A stretch of 63,971 nucleotides of DNA, filler included, from Folioceros fuciformis (Eukaryota): the NCBI GenBank assembly GCA_049999805.1. It is 4 parts of 4 records of this genome, joined end to end, with 100 filler letters (N's around TTAATTAATTAA, not from the genome) between each part and the next. Parts side by side here need not be neighbours in the genome. Positions count along the whole stretch, not along the records: positions 28,648 to 53,564 come from JBNGIO010006285.1; 3 more parts are not named here. One strand, given 5' to 3'. The notes under the pieces are model-generated. The model ran no database searches and was not told the DNA's origin. It was given only the letters and a program-made list of their open reading frames with translations. Shown piece after piece: positions 15,301 through 63,971 of the stretch. Every line of letters starts with the position of its first letter. Positions within the stretch are counted from its first letter, which is position 1. The translations under genes were made by a program, and so were the position numbers.

Positions 15301-15594
15301 GCGTGTCAAAAATGGAGGAACGTGGAAGTGGGACGCCGTGCTTTCCAGGAAGCAGTGAAACTAGACGACAAAGATGCTGCAGCATATGTTTTGATGTCAA
15401 ACATCTATGCCAACGCCCAGATGTGCGAGGACGCAGAGGAGATGCAGGAGAGGAGGAAAGGACTGGGTGCGTGGAAGCAGCCAGGCCAGAGCTGGTGGAC
15501 AGACTTGGACGGATCAGTGCACACTTTTGTGGTTGGGGATAGAAAGCATCCTGAGAGTGAAGAGATGTCTACGCAACACTGCAATACCTTGTGA
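12376..15594 (+). CDS. PLS-class pentatricopeptide repeat protein with E1/E2 and a truncated WW-type E+ region (no deaminase core)
   Basis: Single-exon ORF with repeated P-L-S triplets (VVTWTALIAGYSQQG / TFVCLLQACAS / SLVNMYAKCGSL), HYTCMVDLLSRAG and C-terminal KQPGQSWWTD...HTFVVGDRKHPE, then a stop. First in-frame ATG is at 12376. Confidence 0.92.
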   Translation: MGARGVRGALQAHVWPQCVWLRPAWVDAQLGAVDVHCAHVCMSSSWSSQDDLNHGRLAGAGYGRRVLTAECVSNHCEQGQLGEAVEGLGVLVQAGCRVSKALFYSVLRKCVGERDLVLGRRVHALSLKNECGSDTFLCNHVLRMYAFHDRLQEAMDVFTVVAEPDAFMWSSIILAHVKHAEYTQAVRLYDKMRRSSVKPDGHVFVAALQACAKSADLTSGKQVHADLWASGLLPDVFVSHSLVEMYAKCGRVEDARRVFDGVAVKDVVVWNAMIAGYAQRGMGGEALHLYSDMQEDGNAAPTSGTFVHLLQACASVGSPGLEKGQQLHAQICEQGLQVDAVLGCSLVNMYAKCGSLQDAHIVFDRLVEKDVVAWTALIAAYSQQGSGEEALHLYSSMREEGISPPDSVTFVCLLQACGSMGPAALKRGKQLHAQVREEGLDAHVGVACSLVNMYAKCGSLEDAQRVFDGLVHKNVATWTAMISGYSQQGMGQEALRLYSAMRDEGIVAPDFMTFVCLLQACASVGEPALEQGKQLHVQVRKQGLEADVVVCSGLVNMYAKCGTLQDAQSVLDELFVCTGMQEGGIAAPISVMYVCLLQACASVGTLALEKGKHLHAQIRGQGLEADGPIGCSLVNMYAKCGSLEDAESVFGTLCKKDVTSWTSLIAGYSQQGMGQEALRLYSAMQLEGIVAPDAVTFVCLLQTCASIGSLALGKGKQFHAQIRERGLQTHVVVANSLVSMYVKCGSLGDAQRVFDRLGQKNVVTWTALIAGYSQQGMSQEALNLFNAMREQGLTPPNSVTYVCLLQACANVAGLHPGRQLHAEIEERGLQTDLTVGHSLINMYAKSGSMIEAQHVFEALPERGVVAWNTLIAGFTREGDSEAVFDLVHKMREDGVQPDDITALSVLTVCSHVGLVSKGREYFEAMSRNYGITPTAEHYTCMVDLLSRAGQLDEALSLARTMPVLPNAAVWHTLLAACQKWRNVEVGRRAFQEAVKLDDKDAAAYVLMSNIYANAQMCEDAEEMQERRKGLGAWKQPGQSWWTDLDGSVHTFVVGDRKHPESEEMSTQHCNTL

Positions 15595-42130: not shown

Positions 42131-43410
42131 GCGAGCATTTGAGATATTCTCTAAAGATTTGGCCAAAATGGAGCAAGCTGCTCGGTGGGTCAATCAAAAA
42201 GGCTTCGGGGTTATTTATGCTCGAATCAGTCCGTGGAGCTCCTCTGCCTCACGGATGGAAAGTAGTTGTGGCGTCTGAGTACTCGCCCACCTGAAAGGGA
42301 GCACTCAGACCATGTGCATGCTCGCCGAAATGGCATGGGCCTAACTCGACCTTGGGCGTTTTTCTTCATGGGCCTAACTCGACCGTGGGCTTTTTTTTTT
42401 TTCCTGGGTCTCTCTTTCAAAATGATCTGTCTCGGTCACAGTGAGGATACACATTGAAACCGGGGCCCAGGTCAGGAAGCTTTTGCTTTGGCTGCGACTA
42501 CACCATAGTGGCCTTTGGATTCTGCCCCAAGCGGGCTACGCTGGCAAAAATGTCTTCCGGCCGAAACACTAGGAGCAGTGTTTGGAGGAGCCATTGTTCG
42601 TGGGTCTGGACCACACTGCTGCAGCTACACACCTCGTACAGTTTTGTGTCTCCTTTATGACCACAGGTACAATTACGGATTCTCTTTTTAACGGGGCTAA
42701 ATCTTGGGCACTAGAGCTTCATCGTAATCCTCGCCTGTTCAACTTGCGGGACATCGAATCTGAGGTACAGATTGCAACATTTATGTTTTGCCGTAATCCT
42801 AAGGAAAGCCCGGACGCACTCCGGAACTGACGGGGACTCTTGGATGTGGGGTCTTGTTTTACACGGAAAAGCAATTTGAACAAAGAGTTTTAAGTGTCCC
42901 TACGTCAATTGAATTAAAGCCACGTATGGTGTCATGTGTCAGTCTTGCTGCTTGCAACGTTCGTCTCTCGAAACGAGAAGAACATCGCAATGCGGAATTG
43001 TCGGTGAGTCCGGACATCTTCTTTTATTTGGTCGATTACTAATAGATTCACTCAAAGGGAAGGAAAAACGTGCCTTATGGCGTCCTCAAGCAGCCTGACC
43101 GCGTAGTCTCCAAAGAGCCAGGAACTGGAATCCCACACAGGAAGGAAGGACGTAAGCCGCCTCGTCGCCTGTCGATAAGGAAGACTTTGTCATGATAAGT
43201 ACTGTATTGGGAAAATTATGTGTTTTTGTCTTATATTTAAGATTCCATTTGTTCTCAGAGCGATACAAATTCTCGTTGGATTCAAATCCTTTGGGTTGGG
43301 TTGAATTGGTTTGGGGCTCATCGGAGCCAGTCCGCATGGGGTGGTGATGCACAGTCCATTGTCGGAATCATCTTCCGCAGCTTCCGACTTCCGAGAGTGG
43401 TCCCTGAACG

Positions 43411-46400
43411 ATGGCCACGGTATGGCAACCGGACCCGTTGTGGACCCAACAAAATGGGGTGTTTATGGGAATGATACGAGGAGCTCCCGCGCAATTCATC
43501 TTCGGGAGTAAATCACTGCCAAACAAAGCCTCCAGCTGCAGCAGTGTAAGGAGCTCAGCACTTCCACTTGCGAGAAATTGTGCGGGTGGAGACGGTTTTC
43601 CCAACGATGACGTTTGCCAGGAGCAGGAGAACTTGTGGCAACAATTCTTTCTCGACCCTACTATGTGGTGGGACAACAGACGAGACAAGAAGAGCTTGAG
43701 GTCGCCTGACTTCCGGCGCAAGCGATCCGGCGAGGTCCTGTGGTTAAACAACATGTTTAAGCCAGCCTGGGTTGATGAGCAGCTCGTTTCCTTGGATATG
43801 CAGATGGGTCGTGCTGCCTCTCCTCCCAACGCGAGCAATTGGGATAATCCTGAATCTGGGAGGCGTGTGGAATCGGAAATGGGCTCCAGCTGCAGGAATG
43901 CAAGGAGCCCAACACTTCCAATTCCGGGGAACTGGGTGAGTGGGGACGGGATTTCCAACGATGGCCGCCGCCAGGAGCAGGGGCTCCTGTTGCAACAATT
44001 TTTTCAGGATTCTAGCATGTTGTTCGACAACAGGCGAGATAAAACGAGATCCCAGTTGCCGGAATTCCGGCGTAAGAGGTCCGGGGAGGTCCTGTGGTTA
44101 AACAGCATGTACAAGCGAACTTGGGTTGATGAGGAGCTCGATTCCTTGGATATGCGGATGGGTCATGGTTCCTCTCCTTCCAAGTCGAGCTCTGTGGATA
44201 AGCCTGAACCGGGAAGTCGTGCAAGATCAGAAATGGGTGTCATAACAGCTGCAACCGTGAGCATGCTATGTGAGCAGGGGAAGCTTTCTGAGGCCGTTGG
44301 AGCCCTGGAGTCTCTGGCGCAGGCAGACTCTGCTATTTCCCAGTCTCTGTTTTACACTGTGCTCAAGCTTTGCACAGCTAAGAAGGATTTGGTTGTGGGG
44401 CGACGAGTTCATGACCTCACTGTCAAAAGTGGGTATGAGTCTAGTGCATACTTGGGAAACCACATCTTGCGCATGTATGCATTTGGAGGTAGGCTGCAGG
44501 AGGCCATGGATGTGTTCACCAGGGTCGGCAAACCAAATATCTTCATGTGGGTTTCCATAATCTCGGCACATGCTAAGCACGGGAAACCTAAGGAGGCCAT
44601 ACAACTCTACCATGAGATGCGCAGGTCTGGAGTGAAGGCGAATGGCCACGTCTTTGTAGCTGCCCTCCAGGCTTGTGCAATTGCTGCTGACTTGGAATCC
44701 GGCAGAAAAGTGCACTGTGATGTGTTGCACAGTGGCACTTCTACTGACTTGTTTGTTGGCAATTCTCTGGTGGACATGTATGCAAAATGTGGTGAACTGA
44801 AAGATGCATTCCAGGTTTTTGAAAGCATGGCCGAAAAGGACGTGGTAACATGGACGGCGCTGATATCTGGGTACGTAAAGTGTGGTGAACTGAAAGATGC
44901 ACGCCAGGTTTTTGACAGTATGAGCACGAAGAATGTAGTGACATGGACTACGCTGATAGGTGGGTATGCCGAGCAAGGGCTCGGACATGAATCGCTTGTC
45001 CTGTATGGACAAATGGAGCAGGAGGGCCTTATTTTGGCGGACTCTGTCACCTTTGCTTGCCTTCTGAAGGCCTGCGCAAGCACTGGTGCCTTACACAAGG
45101 GCAGGCAGCTGCACTCACAGATTGTTGAGCGAGGACTTTTGGATAATGTTCTGTTGGGCAACTGCCTCGTGGACATGTATGCGAAATGTGGAGAACTGGA
45201 AGATGCACGCCAGGTTTTTGATAGTTTAGCAACAAAGGATGTGGTCACATGGAATGCCCTGATAGCTGGGTATGCGCAGCAAGGACTTGGCCAAGAGGCA
45301 CTAGTTGTGTATGGGGAAATGGAGCAGGATGGCCTGATTTTCGCAAACCATGTTACTTTTGCTTGCCTTCTGAAGGCCTGTGCAAGCAGTGGCGCTTTAC
45401 AAAAGGGCAGGCAGCTGCACTTAAAGATAGTTGAAAGAGGACTACTGGATAATGTGTTGGTGGGGACCTGCCTAGTGGACATGTATGCAAAGTGTGGTGA
45501 ACTGAAATGTGCACGCCGGGTTTTTGACAGCATGAACACGAAGAATGTAGTCACATGGAATGCCTTAATATCTGGATATGGTACTTCTGATGATGGTCAG
45601 GGAGCAATAGCTTGTTTTGAGGAGATGTGTGTTGCCGGTATTCAGCCTGATGGTGCTACTTTTACTTGCCTTTTAGTAGCGTGCAGTCATGAGGGACTAG
45701 TCCATGAGGGTCGCAAGTACTTTGATTCCATGGCTGAAAACCATGGCATCAAACCTACTGTCGAGCATTATACCTGCATGATTGATCTTCTTGGGCGTGC
45801 AGGCCATTTGGATGAGGCGGAGAAGATGCTATTGTCATGCAAGGGCCATAGTTATGTTGTGGGATTGACGTCGTTGTTGAATGCCTGTAGAAGTCATGGG
45901 GATATAAAGAGGGCAATGTGGTGTTTCGAAAGCATCGTAAGGCTGGATCCCCGGGAGGCGCCCGCCTATGTGCTCATGGCGAATGCCTACGCTGATGCAG
46001 GTAGGTGGACTGATGTGGACAGGATTGAAGTACAGAGAAGGGTGGCAGGAGCTACCAAAAAACCTGCTGTGGCGAGCATTGAGGTGAACAAGCAGGTGCA
46101 CCGATTTTTGGTGGGAGAAAAGAGAGGGGATATTATGCTCAAGGTGGACAGCACGAATGCCCGCGTGAAGCACGAAGGGGGCCACGTACCTCACACAAAG
46201 TTAGTGTTGAAGCCACTATGTGAGAAGGAGAAGGAGGATGTGCTTTGTGGGCATGCTGAGAAGCTAGCGCTGGCGTTTGGTCTTTTGAACAGTCCCAGTG
46301 GAACACCTCTGGTGGTTACCAAGAATCTACGCATGTGCAGTGACTGCCACAATTCGACGGAGATCATATCAAGGCTTGAACAGAGAGACATTGTTGTAAG

Positions 46401-46461
46401 GGATGGGTACCGTGTCCATCGATTCACAGCTGGTTCTTGCAGTTGTAAGGGTCGACCTTGA
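43411..46461 (+). CDS. PLS-class PPR-DYW:KP ('GRP'-type) putative U-to-C RNA editing factor with two N-terminal OSB-like PDF motifs
   Basis: Single ORF of 1016 aa; N-terminal WQQFFLDPTMWWDNRRDK...PDFRRKRSGEVLWL twice; P/L/S/SS array; KKPAVASIEV, HAEKLA, KNLRMCSDCH and terminal CSCKGRP. Confidence 0.93.
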   Translation: MATVWQPDPLWTQQNGVFMGMIRGAPAQFIFGSKSLPNKASSCSSVRSSALPLARNCAGGDGFPNDDVCQEQENLWQQFFLDPTMWWDNRRDKKSLRSPDFRRKRSGEVLWLNNMFKPAWVDEQLVSLDMQMGRAASPPNASNWDNPESGRRVESEMGSSCRNARSPTLPIPGNWVSGDGISNDGRRQEQGLLLQQFFQDSSMLFDNRRDKTRSQLPEFRRKRSGEVLWLNSMYKRTWVDEELDSLDMRMGHGSSPSKSSSVDKPEPGSRARSEMGVITAATVSMLCEQGKLSEAVGALESLAQADSAISQSLFYTVLKLCTAKKDLVVGRRVHDLTVKSGYESSAYLGNHILRMYAFGGRLQEAMDVFTRVGKPNIFMWVSIISAHAKHGKPKEAIQLYHEMRRSGVKANGHVFVAALQACAIAADLESGRKVHCDVLHSGTSTDLFVGNSLVDMYAKCGELKDAFQVFESMAEKDVVTWTALISGYVKCGELKDARQVFDSMSTKNVVTWTTLIGGYAEQGLGHESLVLYGQMEQEGLILADSVTFACLLKACASTGALHKGRQLHSQIVERGLLDNVLLGNCLVDMYAKCGELEDARQVFDSLATKDVVTWNALIAGYAQQGLGQEALVVYGEMEQDGLIFANHVTFACLLKACASSGALQKGRQLHLKIVERGLLDNVLVGTCLVDMYAKCGELKCARRVFDSMNTKNVVTWNALISGYGTSDDGQGAIACFEEMCVAGIQPDGATFTCLLVACSHEGLVHEGRKYFDSMAENHGIKPTVEHYTCMIDLLGRAGHLDEAEKMLLSCKGHSYVVGLTSLLNACRSHGDIKRAMWCFESIVRLDPREAPAYVLMANAYADAGRWTDVDRIEVQRRVAGATKKPAVASIEVNKQVHRFLVGEKRGDIMLKVDSTNARVKHEGGHVPHTKLVLKPLCEKEKEDVLCGHAEKLALAFGLLNSPSGTPLVVTKNLRMCSDCHNSTEIISRLEQRDIVVRDGYRVHRFTAGSCSCKGRP

Positions 46462-48129: not shown

Positions 48130-48830
48130 TAACAAGCCACCACTGTCTATGGTGCGGTCACGCAGTGTACCTGGGGCGTCCTGCCGTAGTCTGTTTTGAG
48201 ACCCATCTTCGGAGAGCGGTCCCCGAACGATGGCCGGAGTATGACAACCAGACCCCTTGTGGACCCATCAAAGTGGGGGGCGTTCAGGCACTCGCAACCA
48301 GGAGTTCCCCCATACCTCATCGTAGGACGTGAATTCCTGGCAAACAATACCTCCAGGTGCAGCAGTGTAGGGAGCCCAGCACTTCTGCCTCCGACAAAAC
48401 GTGGGGGTGGATACGGATGGGGTTTCCAGCGATGCTCGTCTCCAGGAGCAGGAGAACTTGTGGTAACAATTGTTTCTGGATCCTACCCTCTGGTGGGAAT
48501 AGACGGGATAAGGAGAGCTCCCGTTCGCCTGAATTCCGGTGTAAAGGCACCAGCGAGGTGCTGTGGTTGGACAACAGGTTTAAGCCAGCTTGGGTTGATG
48601 AGGAGTTCGTGTTCATGGATATGCAGATGGCCTGTGGTGCCTCTCCTTCGGGGGCCAGCTCTCGGGATAAGCCCAAACATGGTTGGCGTACTGGATAGGG
48701 AGTGCGAATGGAAATGGTAACGCCTGGAACCGTGAGCATGTCATGTCACCAGGGGAGGCTTTCAGAGGCAATTGGGGCCCTGGAATGCCTGGCGCAATCT
48801 AACTCTGCTGTTTCTCAGTCTGTGTCACCG
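48130..48830 (+). pseudogene. Truncated, frameshifted paralog of the 5' part of the 43411-46461 PPR gene
   Basis: DNA similarity to ~43320-44350 (gtccccgaacgatggcc...ttgtggacccatcaaa; NRRDKESSRSPEFRCKGTSEVLWLDNRFKPAWVDEE); it ends at LECLAQSNSAVSQS, where the PPR array would begin. Confidence 0.8.
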
Positions 48831-50673: not shown

Positions 50674-53564
50674 TGCTGAATAGTAGTCAAGACAGCTTGA
50701 CATCTTGTGCGTGTAGCGAGAGATAGATATCAAAAGAATCCAGCATGATAATTAATGAGAGAATAATTAATAATGAAAAGGTAAAGGTATTTATAGCCAA
50801 GCCCTAAACTAATTAGGTCATCTATTCATGCATACTCCTAGGTTACCCATAACAACGGGTTATTTTCAACACTCCCACATAACCTAGGCAGTGTGCATCT
50901 TCCTTTAGATGAGAGTCGATCGCCGCCCTCTCCCGTTATCGCACACGCTCGTTAGCCAGAGCTCGCACTGTTACGCGCTGGGAGCTGAAGCGACGACTGT
51001 GACACCATGTCGCAGCTACTTGCGATTGTGGCCACCATCCTCGCCTCCTTCTGTTTGCTCATACTGTGGCAGCAGCAGAAAATGACTACAAGAAGCGGTG
51101 CGCGCTACAGGCCTGAAAGGTATGGAGAGGGTGCTGTCCCAAGGAAGAAACGTGCGGTGAAGAAACAGGAAGAGGTTGCAGCTGGTGCTAGAAACACAAG
51201 GGCTTTGCAGTGGAGACCTTTAAATCTACAGCACTACATCAGTAGCTGCGGCTGGGAAGTGGAGGTGGCAGCCAGCGTGACTGTGCGCAAGGTGCAGGAA
51301 ACAGGCAGGGCAAATTCAGCTGTGAAGGAAAAAAGAGATAGTGGCTGAACTCCTGGACCCGCCTAACCCAGACCCCCTCAGAGGGATGAAGGTTAGATGG
51401 CGCGAGGCAATCAGGACCCCACTGCCTGCTGATGAAAACGTGAAGGAAGAAACAAAAGTAGAAAGGATTGATGCAGCAGACGGGAGACAGCTCCCACAGA
51501 AGACAACAAACCCCTAAAGTGCCATGATTAGGTAAACACTGTGACGATTCATCCATGGCTGTGATGGTGATAGACAGAAGCAAGTCTGACCAACTAATCT
51601 GTATGTATGTGCTGCAGAACACATGGCAGGACTGATGAGAGGACAGCTTTAGAGCTGGGTCTCACAGCTAAAATTATGATAAACTATAAAACTAGGGGAC
51701 TGAGGTCCCCATCCCCCCAATTCCAAACAGGTCAGACTGTCACCACTGTTTACCTTACTCCTGTTCTTGGTAACAAATAGCTGAAGTCTCGTATACCCAG
51801 GGATTCCATGTGATGCGAATGCTTGAGCTTGGGTAGTGACTTTGTCATGATATCTGCAGTATTCTCCGCTGTTGGTATATATTTTACTTGTATGACTCCT
51901 CGTGCCACTGCATCTCTAACATAATGATGTTTGATCTCAATGTGTTTTGTACGAGCATGAAAACGCGGGTTGGCAACAAGGGCAATCGCAGAGTTGTTAT
52001 CACAATACACAGTAGTAGGACTGGCTTGCTCATGATGAAGATCCTTGAGGTATGATCTTGCCCATTCAGCCTCCTTAGCAGAGTCTGAAAGTGATACATA
52101 TTCTGCTTCGGTTGAAGATAAAGCAATAGCTGATTGCTTCTTGCAGGACCAGGTAACGGCCCCACCAACTAGCAGAAAACAATATGTGGACAAACTCTTA
52201 CGGGAGTCGGGATCAGAAGCCCAATCTGCATCTGTGTAAGCTTCAAGTGTTAGACCAGAAGGAAGACCAGCTTGGTAGAAGATACCGTAATTCATGGTCC
52301 CCTTCAGGTAACGATAGATTCTTTTCACTGCTGCCCAATGAATTCGTCCTGGCTTCTCCAGAAATTGGGATACACAGCTGACTGAGAATGCGATATCAAG
52401 TCTTGTCCAATTTGATATGAAGATGAGGCAACCGACAGCGTGCCTATAGGGAATCTTCTCCATATCAGCAATCTCCTCTGGAGTGGAAGCACATTGATCA
52501 GATGTTAACTTAACACCGACTGAACCAGGGGTGGACACAGGCCTGGCTTCATCAAGCTGAAAACGCTTCAAAATCTCAAATAAGTATTTCTTTTGATGAA
52601 TGACTATGAGGCCTTTTTCTCTGTTCCTTAATACTTGAACACCCAGGCAGAATTTAAGTGCTCCCACATCTTTCATTTCAAATTTATCCCTTAAAAGGTC
52701 TTTAACCTTATTCAAGATATGGGTATCTGTACAGGCAAAGATGCAGTCGTCTACATACACTGCAAGAATGCAAAAGGCCGAGCCGTCGACGAGATAATAT
52801 ACAGATGAGTCTGCTGAACTTTGTGTAAAACCTAGAGCTTTGAGTTCAGCGTCAAGTTTCTCATTCCACAGCATGGCACTTTGCTTAAGCCCATACAGGG
52901 CTTTGAGTAGCCTCAGTACCTTGTTAGGAAAACGTTTATCCACATAACCCTGGGGCTGCTCCATGTAAATTTCCTCCTTAATCTCCCCATGTAGAAAAGC
53001 AATACACACATCCATTTGATGCAATTCCAAGTTCAGTTCCGCAGATATGGCTAACAGCATCCTAATAGATTATGCTCATACGACAGGGGAAAAAGTTTCC
53101 TGGTAATCCAGGCCAGGAACTTGAGAAAATCCACGAGCGCAGAGCCTGGCCTTATAACGGGCAATCTCACCTTCAGCATTAAGTTTGGTCTTGAAGACCC
53201 ATTTACAAGTGACAGCCTTCCTACCAGGTGGCAAGTCTGTAAGTTCCCATGTTTTATTTTTAAGGATAGACTGGTATTCCTCCTCTACTGCAGCTTGCCA
53301 CTTATCAGCATCAGGACCAGCATAGGCTTCATCCATGGAAACAGGATCCAGCAAAATGGGAGTGCTGCCAGGAATGGCAGCATGAGTAGAAGGCCGGAAG
53401 TCATAAGAAGCATAAGGGGGTTCTGACCATTGGGCACGAGGTAGGCGGGCACGAGGAGGATTGCGTCTAGGAACGACAACAGCAGGAAGATCCTCCTCTT
53501 GATCTGGTGTGTCTAGATCAGGGTAGGGTAGATCAGCAGGTTCAGGGAAAGGGTCTGCGACAGG
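50674..53564 (-). mobile_element. Ty1/Copia retrotransposon A (RT-RNase H, 3' region, PPT and 3' LTR); 5' part cut by the gap
   Basis: YKARLCARGFSQ, LHQMDV..AFLHG, LYGLKQS, YVDD, YTDADWA, SSTEAEY and RTKHI; two in-frame stops at ~53070-53078; minus-strand gtgggag followed by a TGTTGA...TCAGCA LTR (50871-50674) containing TATAAATA. Confidence 0.9.
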
Positions 53565-53664
53565 NNNNNNNNNNNNNNNNNNNNNNNNNNNNNNNNNNNN
53601 NNNNNNNNTTAATTAATTAANNNNNNNNNNNNNNNNNNNNNNNNNNNNNNNNNNNNNNNNNNNN

Positions 53665-56600
53665 CGTTTCAGCCGCATTCTCATGAAGCGTGTCAAGGTG
53701 CAGCCCTGCAAAGAGTTTCCAGGGCATATGGTCAGCTTTTACAGTAGGTGTTACGTCCCTCCTTGTGATTCCTTGTGTGTGTTGGCTGCAATTCAGCAGT
53801 CCTATTCATGCCTTGCTCCCACTGCTTCTAAAAACGTTGTTACTGTTGCCATTTGCAGGGTCTGAGATGAGACTTCGTGAGGAAGTACGCCTTGTCTCCC
53901 CTGAGAGGATATCATATGAAGAAAGGAGAAAGCATAACAGCCCACGAACTGACGAGAGCTTCACCAGCAGCAGTGAGCTAGAGAAAGTCTTCAGTGACTC
54001 AGACAGTGATGAATACAACTCGCCAAAGACACCTGATTCACTTCCAGAAGAAAGCAACTATTCCAGCTCTCGTGGCAGCTGGGATTACTAGGCATAGATT
54101 TCTGTTCTTCAGACTTTGTTGGTTTGCAGGAAGTCTTCGGACTTCCCTAAACCAAGACCTTTAAGATGTTTTGTGTGCAAGTCTCTCCCCAGTGCTTTGG
54201 TGAGTATGTCTGCAGGGTTGTCGGCTGTCGGCACATATTCCAACACTATCTTTCCTGCTGATACTTGTTCACGTATAAAATGGTGTTCTACTTCAACGTG
54301 TTTTGTCCTTGAATGAAATACTGGGTTTTTAGCGAGAGCCATTGAGCCCTGATTGTTAGTCCTTACACTTGTGCATGTAGGAAGGTCCAGTCCCATTTCC
54401 TTGAACAACAGCTTAAGCCAAATAACCTCCTTTGCTGCTGCTGTTAGGACTCTATACTCGGCTTCTGTGCTCGAGGTGGCTACTGTGGGTTGCTTCTTGC
54501 TGCTCCAACATATTGGCCCTCCTGCGAAGCTTACTACATAGCCTGACACAGACCTTCTGGTATCAACATCACCAGCATAGTCAGAGTCTGTGAATACTGC
54601 TAGGTCTAGAGCTTCAGGACTGTATTGGTATTTAAGTCCTACATCATAGGTGCCCTTTAAGTATCTAAACACCCTTTTTAAGCACTGCCAATGCTCTTGC
54701 CCTGGGTTCTCGAGATACTGGGACAAGGAGCTCGTGGCAAAAGAGATGTCGGGCCTCGTAGTGTTTGAAGAATAAATTAATTTACCCACTCATTTTCTGT
54801 ACGGAATGTTAGCCATAGCTTCCTTCTCTGGTTGTGTCTCAGGGCACATGTCTCGACTGAGTTTGAGCCCAGTAGGTAGTGGTGTAGAGGCGGGCTTCGC
54901 ATCCTTTAAGCCCATCTGTTCAGCACTGTCAAGTAAGTATCTAGGCTGGGTAAGGGTTATAACCCTCTTGTCCTTGTTCCTTTGAATATGAACACCTAGG
55001 CAGCTCTGCAGAGGACCTAAATTGGTCATCTCAAATTTCTCTGCCAACAACAGATTGAGCTTTGTGATGTATGCTCCATTGTTACAGGCTATAATTAGGT
55101 CATCTACATACACAGCTAGATAACATACTCTATCTCCTTTCCTGTATACGTAGAGGCTCCCATCTGCCTTACACTTGACAAAGCCTAAAGCTAGAAGCTC
55201 CTCATCAAGGGCTTCGTTCCACTTTAGTGCTGACTGTTTGAGGCCATAGAAAGTTTTTATAAGTCGCACGACATGGTCCTCTTTCCCTTTCACTTCATAT
55301 CCAGGCGGCTGCTGCATATAGATCTCGGTGTCAAGCTTTCCATGTAAAAAGGCTGTCTTGACATCGAACATCTGCAGCTCGTAATCCTTGTGTGCTGCAA
55401 TGGCACAGATAGTACAAAAGGTGGCCATTTTTACAACAGGTGCGTATGTTTCAAAGTAGTCAAGTCCTGGTACTTGAGTAAAGCATCGTGCAACAAGTCG
55501 AGCTTTATATCGGTCAAAGGTTCCATCAGCTTTAACCTTGAGCTTGAAAACCCATTTACAAGATACCATCTTTCGGCCTGGAGGTAACTTGGCCAATTCC
55601 CAAGTCCCATTTTTGATGAGTGAGTCGTACTCAGATTGAATTGCCTTTTTTCATTCTGCAGAATCAGGCCTCCTAAGAGCTTCCTCGTATGACTGTGGTT
55701 CTATAGGGTCAAGCATTGTGGAGTGTGCTTCAGCTGCCCTGAAGTCATGGGACTGGTAGTAGTCTGGAGGACGTCGAAACGCTGTGGATAACGGCGTTCA
55801 GGTTGTGTTGCAGGTTTAGGCTGCTCACGCTGGGGTTCAATGTTTGCTGGATAAATAGGTGCAGCATCGTCAGGTTCTGCTGCTCGGTCTTCCTCCTGTG
55901 CTAAAACAGGATCAGGAGGCAAGGGATCATGAGGAGGTGGCTCCTGTATAGGATCAGCAATATTGTCCAAAACTGGTTCAGACTTAGGGTCAGGGGGAAG
56001 TTCAGGTTCAGATTCAGGTTCTGACTCTGACTGATCCTCATTATCCCCACCTGCAGGAGCAACGTTCTCAGGAAGGTCCTCAAAGTAAGAAACGTCAAGT
56101 TCAAGACGTTCCCAACTGTCATCAGCACGAGAAGCATCTAGGGCAGCTCCCACTGGCCAGAAGCACTGTTCGTCAAAGGTAACACTTCGAGAATAGGTGA
56201 CCTGTTTTGTGTTCACATTATATAGCTTATACGCCTTGATGCCCTCTGTGTAGCCTAACATCATCAACTTCTGTGCCTTGTTAAACAGCTTCTTACGCTT
56301 CTCACGAGGAACAAAAGCGTAGGCAACACAGCCAAAAGTCCTAAGATGCTGGATCTTTGGCTTGTGTCCATAAATGGCCTCACAAGGAGTCATCCCGTGA
56401 ACACCATGTGTAGGGAGTCTGTTCCTCAAGTAAACAGCAGTGGTGAGGGCTTCTGCCCAGTAAGAAAAAGGGAGGTGAGCATGATTCAGCAAGGAAGATG
56501 TAATCTCCTGCAGTGTTAGATTCATATGCTCAGCCACCCCGTTCTGTTGGGGTGTGTAAACCACTGTTAGCTGTCTCCCTATGCCTTCATTAGTGCAAAA

Positions 56601-59600
56601 GGCCTGAAACTCATGTGAGGTAAACTCCCCACCATTGTCTGAACGCAATGTTTTAAGCTGCTTCCCTGTCTAGTGTTCTGCAAATTTCAGGTAAGCTTTG
56701 AACTGTTCAAAACATTCACTCTTGGATTTGAGAATATAGGCAGTGACCAAACGTGTCGTGTCATCTGTAAATGTTAGGAAGTATCTTCCACCACCCAACG
56801 AAGGCTTGGACAAGGGGCCACACAGGTCTGTGTGCACCAATTCCAGGACTTCTGAAGCCCTATGTGGAGCCTTATTGCAAAAGGCTGCTTGGTGGCGTTT
56901 GGCAAGAACACAAGGTTCACACAAAGGTAGAGGCACTAACTTGCCTATGGGGCCATCAGCATACAAATCACTAGTAGCTAGTTGCTGTAATTTGCTGCTG
57001 TGTGGGTGACCCAATCTAGCATGCCACAACTTTGATTTTTCTATCTGTTGTGCAGAGGCTAGGGAGTCCTGATGTGTAAGGTGAGACTGCACTGCCCCAC
57101 CCTTGGTGTGCAAGCAAAACAGGTCATGTTCTGAGGACCCGTAGGCTAGGACTCTGCTAGGATTAAAGGCATCTATCACCTTACACTCTGTGTTTGGAAA
57201 CAGAATGTGGCTATTATTGTCTATGTTAAGACGCCTGACAGAGATGAGGTTGCGTGTCATCTCAGGGACATAATACACATCTATGAGTGACAGCATGACT
57301 CCAGATGGCACAGGCAACTCAACAGTCCCTATACTTGGAGAGACAAGTGATCTGTTATCACCTAGGTAGACATACTGGTCCTTGGCTGACCTGTATGTTG
57401 TGAAAGCATTTCTGTTGAAGCACATGTGAGCAGTGGCCCCCGTATCAAGGTACCACTCTGTATACTGTCCGGCTGTTCTTTTGGCTGACAGACATGTGGG
57501 TGAGGAGATAGGGTTGATGTACCCCTCTGTCCCAACCATAAGCGTTGATGGCGATGGTTGCTTCTTGACCACAACGTTGGTCTTAGCACTTGCCTCCTTG
57601 CGAGGTAAGCCTGCTTGCTTTTTCCTGCAGTCCCTCTCCCAGTGACTAGGGATTTTGCACCAGTTGCAAGTCCCTGACCTTTTATTTTTCTTGCCTGCAG
57701 ATTGTGATGAGTGGCCTCCTTGTGAGCTACCACCTCGGGATGAACCAGATCCGCCGCCTCTAGAGGATGGTCTTGCACCACCTCGTCCACGGTTGGATGT
57801 AAACAGCGCGTGCTGCTTGCCAGCACCCCTGCCTGGTCCACCTCTGGTCGATTCCTCTTCCAGGAGTGACCCAACAAGTTCTGCAAACGTTAATTCTGGT
57901 ACTTTGAGACCGGCTGACTTAGCCAGCTTGGCTACCTGTAACTGGGATGCATGGATTGATGTCACAAAGTGTGACCAGGAAGGAGGTAGTGAGAGTAACA
58001 GGTAAAGTGTTAGCATCTCATCCTTGATTGTTTCGCCAGTAGCTTGTTCTAGCTTGGAGACTAAGGTTCTGAAGATCATGACATGCCTTTCAACAGATTC
58101 TCCTTCACGCATCTTACACTGCTGAAGGTTATTGAGGGCTGATAGTTGATTGGCAGAATTCTTCCCTGCATACAACTCTTCCAGGCGATCCCAGATCTCT
58201 GCAGCAGTCTCACAGCCTGATGTTTAATGCATCATGTCGGCTGTGAGTCCACTTCTAATGAGGTACATAGCAGCATCATTCCTTTGCTGACGTGCCTCCT
58301 TTTGCAGGACTGTTTCTCCTTCTTCTGCAGTATCTAACCCTTTTGTTGTCTTCCAGAGTTTTCTGCTGTGGAGTGCGCCTTTCATGCGCATGACCCGAAT
58401 GTCATTTTGGCGGCCGTCGACCCTGTCTTTCTCCTTAAAACTTTCCCCACCTCCAACAACTGATGAAGAGGCTGTATCCCCCATTGTTGGAGGTCTGGAG
58501 GAATGATAAGGCTACTGGCTTGTATACAAAGGCAGCAATCACGCCAAGAGGGCAGCTAGCATGTTGACAGGTCTGATTACCTCATGCAAGCTGGCTGCCT
58601 GTTATGCTTCTTTCTCTGCTATCTGCTGTTTCCTTAACATGAGCCTATTGTATTCATAGGTTGAGCATGAAGGACAAGAATTGGGATCATCAAAGCGTTG
58701 ACTACTGTTAGTACACTTCACAGATCTGACAGCAAATGTGCGGAACTCTAGATTTTTCAAAAGTTCTGGCTTCAAAAAGACATGCAATTTATAGTCCAAA
58801 TGATAGGTCTGCTCTCTCAAATCATGTAAGTCTACACTCACACTAGCCACGCTCTTATTAAGATTTACAAATCGCTTGTCTACAAACAGGGAATGTGACT
58901 CCACTCTGGAAATGATTTGTGTGATTGTGGCTTGTGGTGTAGGCTGTGTTGTGAGGAAACCGTTAGGGTTCCTGTGTACATCTAAAGCAGCCCTGGGGCG
59001 CAAGTTCTGTTGATCAGCACCAAAAATCTGCTCATGAGGACCAACAATTAGGTTTTGGTGATCAGGATAGAGAGTGGAAACCAGCAGATTGTAGGCCTCG
59101 CGTAGACGGGTGCTGTGCGCAGGTCTGTCCTGGTTTCTGGAAATCCACTCTTGTGTATGTTGGTGAAGTCGTTCTGCTATATTCCTGTCATTAAGCTGTC
59201 CTCTGACTGAGCGATTGCGCTGGACCCGCTCAGCAGGCCGTGGCTGCCAGATCTGGCCTTCATTTTGTGCCATTTCTGATGGCTAAAACTCTGATTGTAG
59301 GGATGCGTACAGAATGCATCCTTATTTTCTTTAAATTTGTAATTGCCTCTAAATGCAAACTGCCAGATCTGACAAGTGTCCTAGCGAACCTATTCCAGAA
59401 TTGCTAGAATAGCAATCTGGCATAGATGCGCTAGAATGCTCTCCAGATCTGCAGATGCAATTATAAAACAGGCAAATTAAATTATAAAGAAAGGCAATCA
59501 GAATTTAAGTTCTTGATTATTTTTGGGCTATCTTTTAAAGAACATTTCTAAAAAGATAAGAGCCAAAAACATATGTTTGTGCACATCCAAACATGCACAA

Positions 59601-59637
59601 TTTGATGCGCATTCTCTAGAATGCAATCCACGCTACA
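53665..59637 (-). mobile_element. Ty1/Copia retrotransposon B (gag-PR-INT-RT-RH, 58484-54109, several stops and a frameshift); LTRs not visible (flanked by gaps)
   Basis: CNWCKIPSHWERDC zinc knuckle, WYLDTGATAHM protease, LWHARLGH, VHTDLCGP / RSDNGGE / PQQNGVAE integrase, YVDD RT and SSTEAEY RNase H; stops at ~58224, 56670, 55652 and 54790. Confidence 0.92.
58602..59273 (-). CDS. Extra 223-aa ORF of unknown function upstream of Copia B gag
   Basis: Intact ATG-to-stop ORF on the element's sense strand ending ~120 bp before the gag ATG; heptad-like segment and C-x12-CxxC; no family recognised. Confidence 0.5.
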   Translation of the reverse strand: MAQNEGQIWQPRPAERVQRNRSVRGQLNDRNIAERLHQHTQEWISRNQDRPAHSTRLREAYNLLVSTLYPDHQNLIVGPHEQIFGADQQNLRPRAALDVHRNPNGFLTTQPTPQATITQIISRVESHSLFVDKRFVNLNKSVASVSVDLHDLREQTYHLDYKLHVFLKPELLKNLEFRTFAVRSVKCTNSSQRFDDPNSCPSCSTYEYNRLMLRKQQIAEKEA

Positions 59638-59737
59638 NNNNNNNNNNNNNNNNNNNNNNNNNNNNNNNNNNNNNNNNNNNNTTAATTAATTAANNNNNNN
59701 NNNNNNNNNNNNNNNNNNNNNNNNNNNNNNNNNNNNN

Positions 59738-62700
59738 AGAATAGAGCAGAGGATTTTGTTCTCTGACTCTGATGATGATGAGGCATTTGGCATGATGGCG
59801 GTGCGCAAGAAAAAGAAAAAGGTTGTTGCTAACTTTGGTGAAGGCGTCACTGCGAAGGGAGTGCCGGAACGGGAATCGACCAAGATGCCGGAGAGTTTCC
59901 GGCAGGTCGAGGGAAACTCCACGACACAGAAGGTGTCAAGATCAGGTCGAGACGTTGAGGCGTTGCTGGACAAGGCCATGGAGGCGCCTGCAGTAAGTCT
60001 TGTGGATCTGGGAGTGAAAGGCAACAACTTCAAAAACATCATGCGAGAATGGCTTAGAAAGGAGCTTGAATCCGCAGGATCTCTCCCTAGTATGGCCAGT
60101 TTGTGTGGCGAGCATCTGATGCCAGAGGCGCGAGGTGGAGGAGGTGTTGCCATGATTGATAACACGGGACGGCACGTGACCTTTGATGGCTATGCTCCAG
60201 TAAACGTACTTGTAGACACAGGAGCGGATCCGGTACTGCTGGGAGCACGGGTGCAGGAGGCACTAAAGCTGTACGGACACAAGCTCGTTCCGAGCGACGT
60301 GAACATCACCACCTATGCAGGTACCAAGGAACAGGTACTGGGAATGACGAGGAGGCCCGTGAAGATTGAATTGAAGCCTGGCACGAAGGATGCCAGCATC
60401 GTTGAAGTGAGATGTTTGGTCACCAGTGCGAAGACATATGATGTCTTGCTGGGGTCGGACGGAACTCACCGTCCTGCCATGGGGGTTGATCCCTTGCACG
60501 CTGAAGCTTTCTACAGACCATTCTGGTGGAGAGGAGATTTCACGCATGTTGCACGAATTCCTCTAAGGATGAATAGGAGTGGTGGCAAGAGCAGGACGAG
60601 GATGACAGGCAGCACCATGATTGCCCACAGTGCTCAGAGTGAACATCGACATGAGATGTGGGAGGAAACGTAGGAGTTATCCTCTCTGGAGATGCCAAAG
60701 CCAAGAGAGCAGAAGGGTGTGCTTAAGGTGGTGCGCTCAGAATATTTGGATCAAGCGAGGGTTCGAGAGAACCAGCGAAGGAAGGAGGATCGACCGTGGA
60801 ATCTCACAGACACATGTCCTGAGAGGTCGATCCCAGGTATGGGGCCTGCCAAGTCGGGAGATCGACGCATCGACGATGCTCTAGTACGATGGAAGGTGGG
60901 CGCTCAAGGCATCCATTTGTTGGAGCTCTGCTCAGGAATCAGCAGTGGCCTGGAAGCGGTGTTGCAGTGTGGCGTCAAGATACGGCAATATACCTGCGTG
61001 GAGAAGGATGAGAAGATTCGAGCTGTCGCTAGGGGTCGAATCCTCAGGTTCTGCAAACAGTATCCAACACTACTGAGCGAGGAAGCAGTTCGAGGCTGTC
61101 AGAGCAGGCTGCCCACAGACGTGAACCTGGTTGGGAAGCGGCAGCTACAAGCCTTGTCAAGCCCAGTGGACATGCTGATCGCGGGATGGGAATGCAAGAC
61201 ATTTTCGACAGCAGGCAGAGGCAACAGTGAAGGCGTTTCGTTGGCTGCTGAGCTCGCACGAATCACGCGAGAAGTCCAGATTGCGAATCCACGATGTTGG
61301 TACATTCTGGAGAATGTGTGTGCAGCCATGGACAAACGTCCAGCTGTTAGGGCCCTGTATGAAGATCTTCGGGACCAGTTGGCAGAAAAGCCTATGTTGG
61401 CCAGGCCGAATTTTGATCACCCTTTCACTCTGTACACAGACTGGAGCACTGCGGGGATTGGAGCAGTGTTGTCACAACATGATGCAGATGGTGTTGAGCG
61501 AGTGATAGCTTATGCAAGCCGATCTAACAACTCCGCTGAAGTGAACTACTTCTCATATGAGGGAGAGTGTCTTGCTGCGGTATGGGCAGTTCTGCATTTC
61601 AGGGTCTATCTGTATGGAAGGCGTTTTCAACTGGTCACAGATCACCAGCCACTTCATTGGCTGATGACCAACATGAAGTTAAGTGGTAAGCTAGCCAGAT
61701 GGGCGCTGCTACTATCTGAGTACGATATGGAGATCGTGCACAGGGCAGGCAAGGTACATCACAATGCAGATGGGCTAAGCAGAAATCCGCTGGACAGTGA
61801 CAAGGATGTCACAGGAGCTCGACAGGACGAGGGGCACGTAGATGGTGCACCCAGCAGCTTCATGGCACTCATGGCCAGGACAGGTGAGCATGAAGAAGGA
61901 CATGTGTTGACAGAGTCCGTCAGGGATGTTTGGAGACATCCTCAAGCCCTACAGTTGCTGAAGGAAGGCACAGTGCCTGGAATGACTGAAGCAGGCTTGG
62001 CTAAACTCAGAAGGCGCGTGGCTAGATACTCATGGAAAAATGGTGAGCTGCTACTGTTAGAAGGAGAACTCGTGAGGAAAGTACCAAGTCATGAGGAAAG
62101 AGTGGGCATAGTGACCAAGGTGCACGAAACCCTTGGCCACTTTGGTGTGAAGAGGACACACCACATGCTGAAAAGCACGTATTTCTGGTCAGGGATGTAT
62201 GCAGATGTCGAGAAGGTGGTTGCTAAGTGTGCTGCATGTGATGCAGTCAAAGCCCGATTTAACACCCAGGATGTGGTGTTGCACTCCCTACCAATCAGGG
62301 GGCTATTCTTTAGATGGTCGGTTGACCTTATGCCAGAGCTTCCCCTCACAAAGCAAGGTAACCGACATTGCATGGTCATGATTGAGCATTTCTCTAAGTG
62401 GGTTGAAGTAGCGTTCTTGCCACAGAGAACTTCACACTACACTAGCAGAGCGTTTCTGCAGTGTGTGCTCAGCCGATTTGGGAGCTGCGCGGAAGTGCTC
62501 ACAGACCAGGGTAACGAGTTTCGAGGTGAATTCCAGACCTTGCTCGACAGGAGTCTCATTGATCACAGGAGGACATCGAGGGATCATCCACAGGCCGATG
62601 GCCTGGCAGAAAGGCTAGTGCAGACCTTCAAGGATGCACTAAGGAAATACTGCATTACTGTGGAGCCCAAGTGTTGGGATGAATTGCTCCCTTACATCGT

Positions 62701-63971
62701 GTTTAGGGTACAGGGTCAGTGTGCAGGCAGCTCTTGGAAGTTTCAGTCCATACTTTTTGTTATTCGGACGCAACGCAGTGTTGCCGAATGTGGTGAAGGA
62801 CACCTACTCCATCCCTGTTGACTGGAGCAAAGATGCAAATGTGTGCTTGGCACAGGTTCAAGCCAGAGCAGAAGTATTTCAAAGAATTCTTCCCATGGCT
62901 ATGGATAATTTGGCTGTGGCCCAGCATCGGGACCAGCTGAGGTATGCTTATACGCGGGGGGGCTCGTGGAAGCCCAAAGGCCGCAAGTTTGCATCTGGAG
63001 ATTACGTGTACTTGCAGCGCAGGCCTGCAAGCACGTTAGATGTCAGCACAGGAAGGCTTATCCTGCGAGTTGTCCAGGTTGGTGAGCAAGGTGTGGTTGA
63101 ACTTGAAGGAAGAGATGGCAGAAGGTGCAAGGAACACATGAAGCACTTGGCTCCATGCCATTTGCCTGATCTGGATACACGAACTGTGCCTCAGACCTGG
63201 ACGCCACCAGCAGATTTGCCCTGTGAGGAGTGTGGACACACAACTGACGACGAATTCATGTTGCTATGTGACAGGTGTAACCGTGGTTACCATCTGTTTT
63301 GCCTCAAACCGGCACTGGACAGTGTTCCAGAAGAAGAATGGCTATGTGAGCACTGTAATGTGCTAAGTGTGAACGTGGCTCTTACAGAAGGTGATACTGA
63401 GGTTGTCTTAAATTCACACACGTTGGAAGCTGAAACAGCAGTTGACAGTCTCTCTGGATTCAAGCTGCCCAGTGAGATTACGATTACACAGGAGGCACAA
63501 GAAGACCCATCAGATGATGAGGATCTAGAAGATGACGCCATTCCTCCTCCTCGGTCAGAACCACCGTCAGTGTTGGACAAGCTACGTTCTCGCTGGTGGG
63601 GACGTTGGTAAGTAGTTGTTTGTTTTCCTAGGCCAAGTTGGTCTAAACAATTTTGTGGGAAACCAGGTGGCTAGGCCTCCAAGTTTCCCAGGGGGGCTGT
63701 TGACGGGTCCCGGGTCTGCCTCTCTTAGGCAAACCTAGTCTCTTTTTGTAGCCTTGCTCTTGGCCATAGGCCAAGGACAAATTAAGGCTAGGATTGTTGC
63801 TCCTGGGCCGAAGGCCAAGGAGATCGCAGGCAGGCGGAAGCTTAGTGACCTAGCTTGGTAGACAGGCTAGGTAGGCATGCAGCTATGCGGCTGCTGCGCG
63901 ACAGCTGTCATGCTGTTGCTGTATGGGAAACAGAGCACCTAAGACTCTATGACTGGATACTGACTAGAGCA
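59738..63971 (+). mobile_element. Ty3/Gypsy-type retrotransposon: protease - partial C5 DNA methyltransferase - RNase H - integrase - PHD finger; no RT; PPT and probable start of the 3' LTR
   Basis: VLVDTGA protease; LELCSGISSG / CVEKD / AGWECKTFS / ILENV methyltransferase motifs; LYTDWS..GIGAVL, YEGECLA and TDHQPL RNase H; H-x4-H...CxxC plus SVDL / TDQG / GLAER integrase after RNase H (Gypsy order); C4HC3 PHD. One in-frame stop (60671) and a frameshift (~62700); AGGGGGG then TGTTGA at 63698. Confidence 0.9.

Follow-up and report, generated by a model that had tools for sequence, protein, structure and literature searches.

Two OSB-type PDF motifs precede the PPR array of a predicted DYW:KP editing factor from Folioceros fuciformis

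Introduction

Positions 43411 to 46461 (plus strand) of a 63,971-nucleotide stretch from Folioceros fuciformis (GenBank assembly GCA_049999805.1; the whole stretch that was analysed, filler included, is called the window here) read as a real nuclear gene for a PLS-class PPR-E-DYW:KP/GRP protein with two N-terminal PDF motifs, the motif known from the OSB proteins. A known motif and a known editor are joined here in a conserved and apparently undescribed combination. Descriptions of PPR editors usually list a transit peptide, a PPR tract and E/DYW domains, and take the region ahead of the PPR tract as targeting sequence. In the present protein this region holds a conserved motif that is predicted to fold and whose sole known activity is the binding of single-stranded DNA (ssDNA).

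According to passages of two reviews (PMC6963530, PMC4166229) and a research article (PMC6451138), which cite Zaegel 2006 for ssDNA binding by PDF, the motif measures ~50 aa, and OSBs carry one to four copies of it after an OB-like fold. In OSB1 the motif is reported to suffice for binding ssDNA (passages of PMC6963530), and OSB1 and OSB2 are described as favouring ssDNA over double-stranded DNA or RNA (passages of PMC4166229).

Results

One reading frame joins the PDF motifs to a PPR-E-DYW:KP protein

The gene consists of a single intronless open reading frame (ORF) of 1016 aa plus stop, whose first ATG lies one codon past an in-frame stop. About 290 codons without a stop lie ahead of the PPR part; the chance of this at the local base composition is ~1e-6 (an arithmetic estimate). 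Pfam recognises in the 1016-aa protein PPR (7.6e-82, 11 stretches), E_motif (1.9e-11) and DYW_deaminase (4.3e-32, aa 924-1014). In this order, and with HAE and CSDCH in the DYW domain, these are the parts expected of a PLS-class PPR-E-DYW editing factor. Within aa 1-296 Pfam returned no family at E<=1, PF00436 included; the sole row was a sub-threshold DUF7905. The parts are arranged as follows.

43411-46461, plus strand: whole ORF (leader, two PDF motifs, PLS PPR array, E motif, DYW:KP), from the ORF call, Pfam and colinearity with the homologue P0171
43411-43626, plus strand: N-terminal leader, aa 1-72, from residue composition and comparison with homologues
43531-43884, plus strand: tandem unit 1, 118 aa (linker, PDF motif, S/P-rich linker), from Tandem Repeats Finder (TRF) and translation
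43627-43803, plus strand: PDF motif 1, aa 73-131, full signature, from a profile score of 78.8 bits and an AlphaFold2 (AF2) model
43804-43983, plus strand: disordered linker between the PDF motifs, aa 132-191, from a predicted local distance difference test score (pLDDT) <50 and a flank dN/dS (ratio of non-synonymous to synonymous change) of 1.02
43885-44238, plus strand: tandem unit 2, 118 aa, from TRF and translation
43984-44157, plus strand: PDF motif 2, aa 192-249, degenerate yet recognisable, from a profile score of 55.2 bits and an AF2 model
44239-45894, plus strand: PLS-type PPR array, aa 277-828, from Pfam and TRF
45895-46083, plus strand: E motif, aa 829-891, from Pfam
46060-46458, plus strand: DYW:KP domain, GRP subgroup, aa 884-1016, 133 aa, from the KP start, HAE, CSDCH, K88, M92 and the GRP end
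48207-48825, plus strand: broken paralogous fragment with the leader/5′ end, a single PDF unit and ~110 nt from the start of the PPR part, from nucleotide alignment

The leader may possibly be an organelle presequence, its first 60 aa containing one D, no E, five K+R, eight S and seven A; in the homologues, 5-130 aa precede the first PDF motif. Within the PPR array, TRF also detected repeats at 44784-45580 (plus strand) with periods of 306 bp (2.3 copies, 80% matches) and 93 bp; a P-L-S block with MYAKCGEL[KE]DARQVFDS at its end has recently been duplicated inside the array.

The DYW domain starts with KKPAVASIEV, KP replacing the PG of the PG box. Counted from the K of KP it comprises 133 aa, with Lys88 and Met92 (VVTKNLRMCSD), GHAEK and CSDCH, and the protein ends with ...CSCKGRP (GGRP in the homologues P0109 and P0171). 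KP, HAE instead of HSE, Lys88, Met92 and the terminal GRP triplet are the features of the GRP subgroup of DYW:KP domains. HAE is described as specific to KP, and the hornwort subgroups DRH and GRP as named after their last three residues, in passages of PMC9478123; passages of PMC11845758 give KP domains as 132-133 aa long with an essential Lys88. The designer proteins KP2 and KP3, made from the GRP consensus, are reported in parts of both papers to edit U to C both in E. coli and in human cells (PMC9478123, PMC11845758), with an efficiency of 22-26% in E. coli (PMC9478123). By the account in part of PMC11845758, U-to-C conversion has been shown for the designers KP2, KP3 and KP6 only, natural KP proteins being unassayed. 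Going by its residues, the window protein belongs to the class whose consensus designs convert U to C. Its GRP type would also point to a hornwort or a near relative as the source. The earlier note that drew attention to this locus had claimed PDF motifs fused in frame to a PPR-DYW:KP protein, and this is upheld by the single ORF, by the Pfam matches to PPR, E and DYW and by the KP/GRP hallmarks.

The tandem units are homologues of the OSB PDF motif

The 236-aa double unit was compared by phmmer with a set of 1.84 billion representative proteins. Of the 560 matches at E<=1e-3, 137 reach E<=1e-10 and 13 reach E<=1e-30; the best 150 were inspected. They include a Chenopodium OSB3-like protein with an SSB domain (E 5.7e-46) and a Populus OSB1-like protein (E 5.6e-21). 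In a BLASTP comparison with Populus OSB1, both of its PDFs align with both units, reaching 41% identity across 85 aa (E 8e-17). A profile search started from 14 aligned motifs produced 583 matches; most of the best 120, which were inspected, carry PF00436 and dozens are named OSB1, OSB2 or OSB3. With a local PDF profile (374 motif instances, 152 proteins), copy 1 reaches 78.8 bits and copy 2 55.2 bits, and a six-frame scan of the whole window with it revealed, besides both of these, a single broken copy (48333-48695, 42 bits), all other rows having E >1. The note had recognised the OSB motif by eye and made its proposal depend on profile similarity: both copies score, and the E values of 5.6e-21 to 5.7e-46 against named OSBs together with the 41% BLASTP identity identify the units as true homologues of the OSB PDF motif.

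The signature W..FF..P..WWDNR..K....PDFKHK....LWL, with its conserved Pro, Asp and Phe, is present, and this consensus is common to PPR-linked (78 instances) and other (512 instances) PDF motifs. The SSB-like OB fold that lies N-terminal to PDF in the OSB family was not found in the window protein. Since no PF00436 was detected and the leader has just 72 aa, the protein is not an OSB. Single-sequence, word-indexed protein searches were almost blank (3 and 1 matches). Pfam apparently lacks a PDF model, since it found no family in P0010, an OSB-like protein with PDF motifs only.

Among the PDF proteins encountered, P0001 (Kingdonia uniflora, 1160 aa), P0004, P0008, P0014 and P0020 carry 7-11 tandem PDFs, compared to 1-4 in the Arabidopsis OSBs. 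In P0051 (Coptis chinensis KAF9616283.1, 1526 aa), three PDFs (aa 191-395) precede a kinesin motor domain; this is either another PDF fusion or an annotator's merger of two neighbouring genes.

The second unit is degenerate while the PDF core is constrained

TRF detects an array at 43530-44237 with a period of 354, 2.0 copies, 76% matches, no indels and a score of 842. The 354-bp tandem unit that the note had placed at 43531-44238 is the same array in codon register, and all the strings that it quoted can be read in the translation: copy 1 has LWQQFFLDPTMWWDNRRDKKSLRSPDFRRKRSGEVLWL...PAWVDEQL, copy 2 has MLFDNR and PEF. Between the two 118-aa units, 68 of 118 residues are identical, as are 76.6% of the nucleotides, and the differences are spread 24/27/32 across the codon positions. 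Copy 1 keeps all positions conserved at >=80% in the family, bar a change of H to R in PDFkHK. Copy 2 is degenerate as claimed. Compared with the family consensus it is without five hallmark features: LW has lost its W, DP and PxWV their P and PDF its D, and the WW pair is missing. It retains DNR, K, P-E-F, RKRSGEVLWL and WV.

Compared copy against copy, the 59-codon PDF core has a dN/dS of 0.26, a value calculated from few differences (15.5 synonymous, 23.5 non-synonymous). The ratio is 1.02 for the linkers and flanks and 0.53 for the whole unit. Going by this difference between 0.26 and 1.02, the PDF core is held under purifying selection and the linkers are drifting.

We considered an assembly artefact and rejected it: units that differ at 23% of their bases without an indel are not the product of mis-assembly. 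Exact contigs exist in a public sequencing run (X1), one of which (333 nt) spans 43954-44286, i.e. most of unit 2 and 48 nt beyond. These contigs are possibly DNA and possibly from the source sample, and they were not used as evidence of transcription. Three other runs (X2, X6 and X7) contain dozens of short contigs that are 90-95% like unit 1 and far fewer on unit 2, which hints that unit-1-like sequence may be multi-copy in related organisms.

Paralogues in the window and the origin of the duplication

The broken fragment at 48207-48825 shares 76% nucleotide identity with 43388-43866 and 71% with 43884-44350, and it is disrupted by stops, a frameshift and truncation. It holds one PDF unit, which shows that a single PDF unit is ancestral. 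Since the homologue P0171 also has just one, the 354-bp tandem duplication is specific to the window gene, its second copy having arisen by it. The idea of a frameshifted leader was tried and rejected; the likeness of the downstream fragment in another frame is similarity at the DNA level to a pseudogene only.

The window has a second PPR gene at 12376-15594 (plus strand), an ORF of 1072 aa in which a PPR array is combined with an E motif. Its frame stops shortly past a PG-box-like WKQPGQSWW, and tblastn detected no DYW domain in any frame. At its N-terminus just RPAWVDAQL, the tail of a PDF unit, is left, indicating that this gene has lost the PDF motif.

Predicted structure of the PDF units

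An AF2 model of aa 66-140, calculated with a 50-row alignment, has a mean pLDDT of 87.6 and a predicted template modelling score (pTM) of 0.73. The unit-1 model is built in the order helix (2-16), two or three short strands, helix (55-66). In a model of aa 51-280 both units adopt the same fold, with pLDDT values of 86-96 in the first and 74-88 in the second, and pLDDT falls below 50 in the linker between them. So the picture suggested by these models is that of beads on disordered linkers, since both units fold alike and the linker scores so low. Each PDF core contains 10-11 K+R, and the core of copy 1 has 5 W and 4 F.

A sequence search of the PDB gave 0 matches at E<=1. With the unit-1 model, Foldseek against the PDB returned no row at E<=0.001 (best E 3.5), and VIA-align wide found none of 48,161 chains at Z>=5 (best Z 4.0). 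The best score in the ESM Atlas, 0.83 to phage gp49 clusters, is below the lead level of 0.9 and was taken as noise. These searches permit no fold assignment for the modelled PDF unit, and the novelty of its fold is not thereby proven.

PDF-PPR proteins in other plants

The note had suspected that similar fusions exist unannotated in seed-free plants. We found them in Adiantum, Pteridium, Selaginella, Diphasiastrum and Sphagnum. An N-terminal PDF followed by PPR is present in 13 proteins among the best 150 of the 560 phmmer matches. Among the matches listed are two proteins of Adiantum capillus-veneris (including KAI5076972.1), three ORFs from assembled transcripts of Pteridium aquilinum, one of which combines PDF (aa 25-83) and PPR (aa 138-405) in the same transcript, and proteins of Selaginella moellendorffii (XP_024517303.1), Diphasiastrum complanatum, Sphagnum compactum (CAM6033764.1) and S. 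jensenii. Of the best 120 of the 583 profile matches, 27 carry PPR, all from Diphasiastrum complanatum and all with N-terminal PDFs, two in 20 proteins, three in six and four in one. Tandem multiplication of PDF thus seems to be the rule in Diphasiastrum, as all 27 proteins listed hold 2-4 copies. The public records are filed as hypothetical or PPR-containing, with names returned without PDF annotation.

The 950-aa protein P0171 aligns colinearly with the window protein, at 53% identity, all the way from the one PDF that it has to the terminal GRP; the PDF motif of the homologue P0109 is degenerate. In a FastTree phylogeny of 362 motif instances, 21 of 21 PPR-linked instances fall into one set of 29-32 rows (SH-like support 96), whose remaining rows are mostly short fragments running into PPR-like sequence. 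This tree, based on 59 columns, is compatible with one fusion event without proving it.

A special link of PDF to KP editors, which the note had considered, is not borne out, because the partners include canonical DYW (PG type) and E-only proteins. The Sphagnum compactum protein and three Diphasiastrum proteins have HSE/PG-type domains ending in RDYW or GDYW, and many of the PDF-PPR proteins listed end after the E motif, without DYW. On this comparison, PDF(1-4 copies)-PPR is an old architecture of mosses, lycophytes, ferns and relatives of the source organism. The named PDF-PPR proteins among the matches listed all come from seed-free plants. MORF genes are confined to seed plants according to a passage of PMC13386178, and a complementary distribution of PDF-PPR in seed-free plants and MORF in seed plants is suggestive.

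Other features of the window

The window is eukaryotic nuclear DNA. Among its other genes are those for Mpp10, Yju2/Saf4, DUF642, a Ulp1 protease and a protein kinase, and it has retroelements of the copia and gypsy types. The copia-type element at 51750-58112 (minus strand) has broken ORFs (gag, pre-integrase, RVT_2) and a run of N at 53564-53664 inside. Another run of N (59637-59737) lies just upstream of the gypsy-type element at 59792-63611 (plus strand), whose pol ORF (60692-62821) includes RNase H and integrase. The first 233 aa of this ORF match weakly to the C-5 cytosine DNA methylase family (PF00145, E 1.7e-4, 21.6 bits, cut-off 22), and this match occupies the place where a reverse transcriptase is expected. 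The following ORF, 62679-63611, contains a PHD finger (E 2.7e-11). Finally, the ORF 7146-7769 (minus strand) has by eye a terpene-synthase-like start (DGSF..SPASTACAL) followed by low complexity. It gave no Pfam match at E<=1e-5 and is probably one exon of a spliced gene.

Discussion

What the PDF units may do on a PPR editor

PPR tracts bind RNA with the N-terminus toward the 5′ side, so the PDF units of the window protein would adjoin the RNA just upstream of the PPR footprint. We favour, tentatively and at somewhat less than an even chance, a role for these units as sequence-independent single-strand nucleic-acid clamps on the editor; this function is inferred from small folded units rich in W/F and K/R, their flexible linkers and the reported single-strand binding. 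The clamps would hold single-stranded RNA directly upstream of the footprint, or keep the RNA unfolded, and thereby raise the affinity and on-rate of the sequence-specific PPR tract, which would then position the DYW:KP domain on the target U. The PDF module could be a built-in accessory in plants without MORF proteins. Several observations weigh against a clamp of this kind. The PPR-linked PDF keeps the OSB signature almost unchanged, and the preference of OSB1 and OSB2 for ssDNA over RNA is on record in passages of PMC4166229; both favour ssDNA as the ligand. Copy 2 is without five hallmark features, three tryptophans among them, and the motif seems dispensable in some paralogues, being a vestige in the 12376-15594 gene and degenerate in P0109. 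The apparent restriction of the architecture to seed-free plants is a pattern drawn from the top 150 of the 560 phmmer matches and the top 120 of the 583 profile matches.

Another explanation, which we consider rather unlikely though the nearest competitor of the clamp, is a tether to the nucleoid. The PDFs would bind organellar ssDNA (the non-template strand of transcription bubbles, R-loops, or replication and recombination intermediates), and the PPR tract would meet the nascent RNA at high local concentration, leading to co-transcriptional editing. Passages of PMC6963530, PMC4166229 and PMC6451138 report PDF as sufficient or responsible for ssDNA binding and ssDNA as preferred by OSB1 and OSB2. 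The copy number of 1-4 parallels that of the OSBs and, since the PPR-linked and OSB-linked consensus sequences are nearly identical, a change of ligand is not indicated. However, tight binding to ssDNA could sequester a scarce RNA factor from its RNA, the motif has decayed or been lost in some paralogues, and sequence does not separate ssDNA from ssRNA binding. Were the tether real, PDF-PPR proteins might be an ancient and unrecognised class of seed-free editors, anchored to ssDNA and coupling editing (including U-to-C editing by KP) to transcription in the nucleoid, a proposal that we rate slightly lower again. The module would then do in cis part of the job of the separate accessory proteins of seed plants. 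That a tethered DYW domain also acts on ssDNA itself has a very slight chance at most.

The same properties of the motif could be read as those of a protein-docking module, by which PDFs oligomerise or dock to OSBs, other PDF proteins or partners in the editosome. A small, folded, aromatic-rich module on flexible linkers would suit this purpose, and the PDF triplet in the Coptis chinensis kinesin gene model would suggest portability, unless it is an annotation merger. We think docking improbable: ssDNA binding is assigned to the PDF motif itself in passages of PMC6963530, and the basic loop NRRDKK...RRKRSG resembles a nucleic-acid surface. Just as improbable is the possibility that PDF is a decaying relic, inherited from an ancestral PDF-PPR gene and still translated but no longer contributing, copy 2 least of all. 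The loss of five hallmark features from copy 2, the dN/dS of the linkers (1.02) and of the whole unit (0.53), the spread of differences over codon positions (24/27/32) and the vestigial or degenerate motifs of paralogues would all be expected of such decay. The core value of 0.26, although obtained from small counts (15.5 synonymous and 23.5 non-synonymous), speaks for constraint instead, copy 1 has its full signature, P0171 keeps a good motif at 53% overall identity, and the architecture is conserved from Sphagnum to ferns. Least probable of all these accounts, and by a long way below the clamp, is that the PDF part lies outside the protein, with translation in fact starting further downstream, from Met275 or Met285, or with the 5′ part on another transcript. 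There are indeed several in-frame Met codons downstream, and the GRP variant is said in a passage of PMC9478123 to be under-represented in transcriptomes, which would agree with such a start. The ~290 stop-free codons ahead of the PPR part, the purifying selection on the core and the same order of parts in dozens of proteins from five named genera, fern transcripts included, are difficult to reconcile with it.

With these fusions the PDF motif widens from an 'OSB-specific' signature to a portable domain without a solved structure. It provides a handle on how seed-free editors work without MORF-type helpers and on whether organellar editing is coupled to the nucleoid, the coupling of editing to ssDNA being a conjecture. 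As the U-to-C designers KP2 and KP3 were built without this N-terminal module, it would be worth trying in engineering.

Comparison with known systems

Literature searches gave no description of a PDF motif in a PPR protein, an earlier mention being possible in Zaegel 2006, Gutmann 2020, Gerke 2020 or supplements. In a kingdom-wide survey of editing-factor domain fusions published in 2026 (PMC13386178), the terms OSB, PDF and ssDNA have 0 occurrences.

Like OSB1-OSB4, which are nuclear-encoded organelle proteins with 1-4 PDF copies, the window protein has PDF motifs of ~50-60 aa with the signature LW..FF..P..WWDNR..K....PDFKHK...E.LWL....P.WV, in tandem on flexible linkers. In OSBs, however, PDF lies C-terminal to an SSB-like OB fold, whereas in the window protein it is N-terminal, no OB fold was detected, and PPR-E-DYW follows. 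The remainder of the protein resembles the hornwort GRP-subgroup DYW:KP proteins in its PLS array, E motif, 133-aa domain, KP, HAE, CxxC, Lys88, Met92 and GRP. The passages of PMC9478123 and PMC11845758 cited above contain no mention of PDF or of an N-terminal nucleic-acid module; the designer KP proteins described there begin with the PLS array, unlike the window protein with its leader and PDFs.

The public PDF-PPR proteins (Diphasiastrum P0170 and P0178, Selaginella, Adiantum, Sphagnum) have the same order of a short leader, 1-4 PDFs and PPR, and their motifs cluster with those of the window protein in the tree. They differ at the C-terminus, which is E-only or a PG-type DYW and not KP/GRP. 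In its general design, the protein can be likened to RRM-PPR (ORRM-type) fusions and to MORF, where a specific PPR editor is combined with a less specific module that binds nucleic acid or PPR. The fold and family of PDF differ from those of RRM and MORF, and MORFs are separate proteins of seed plants according to a passage of PMC13386178, while PDF is part of the same polypeptide as the PPR editor.

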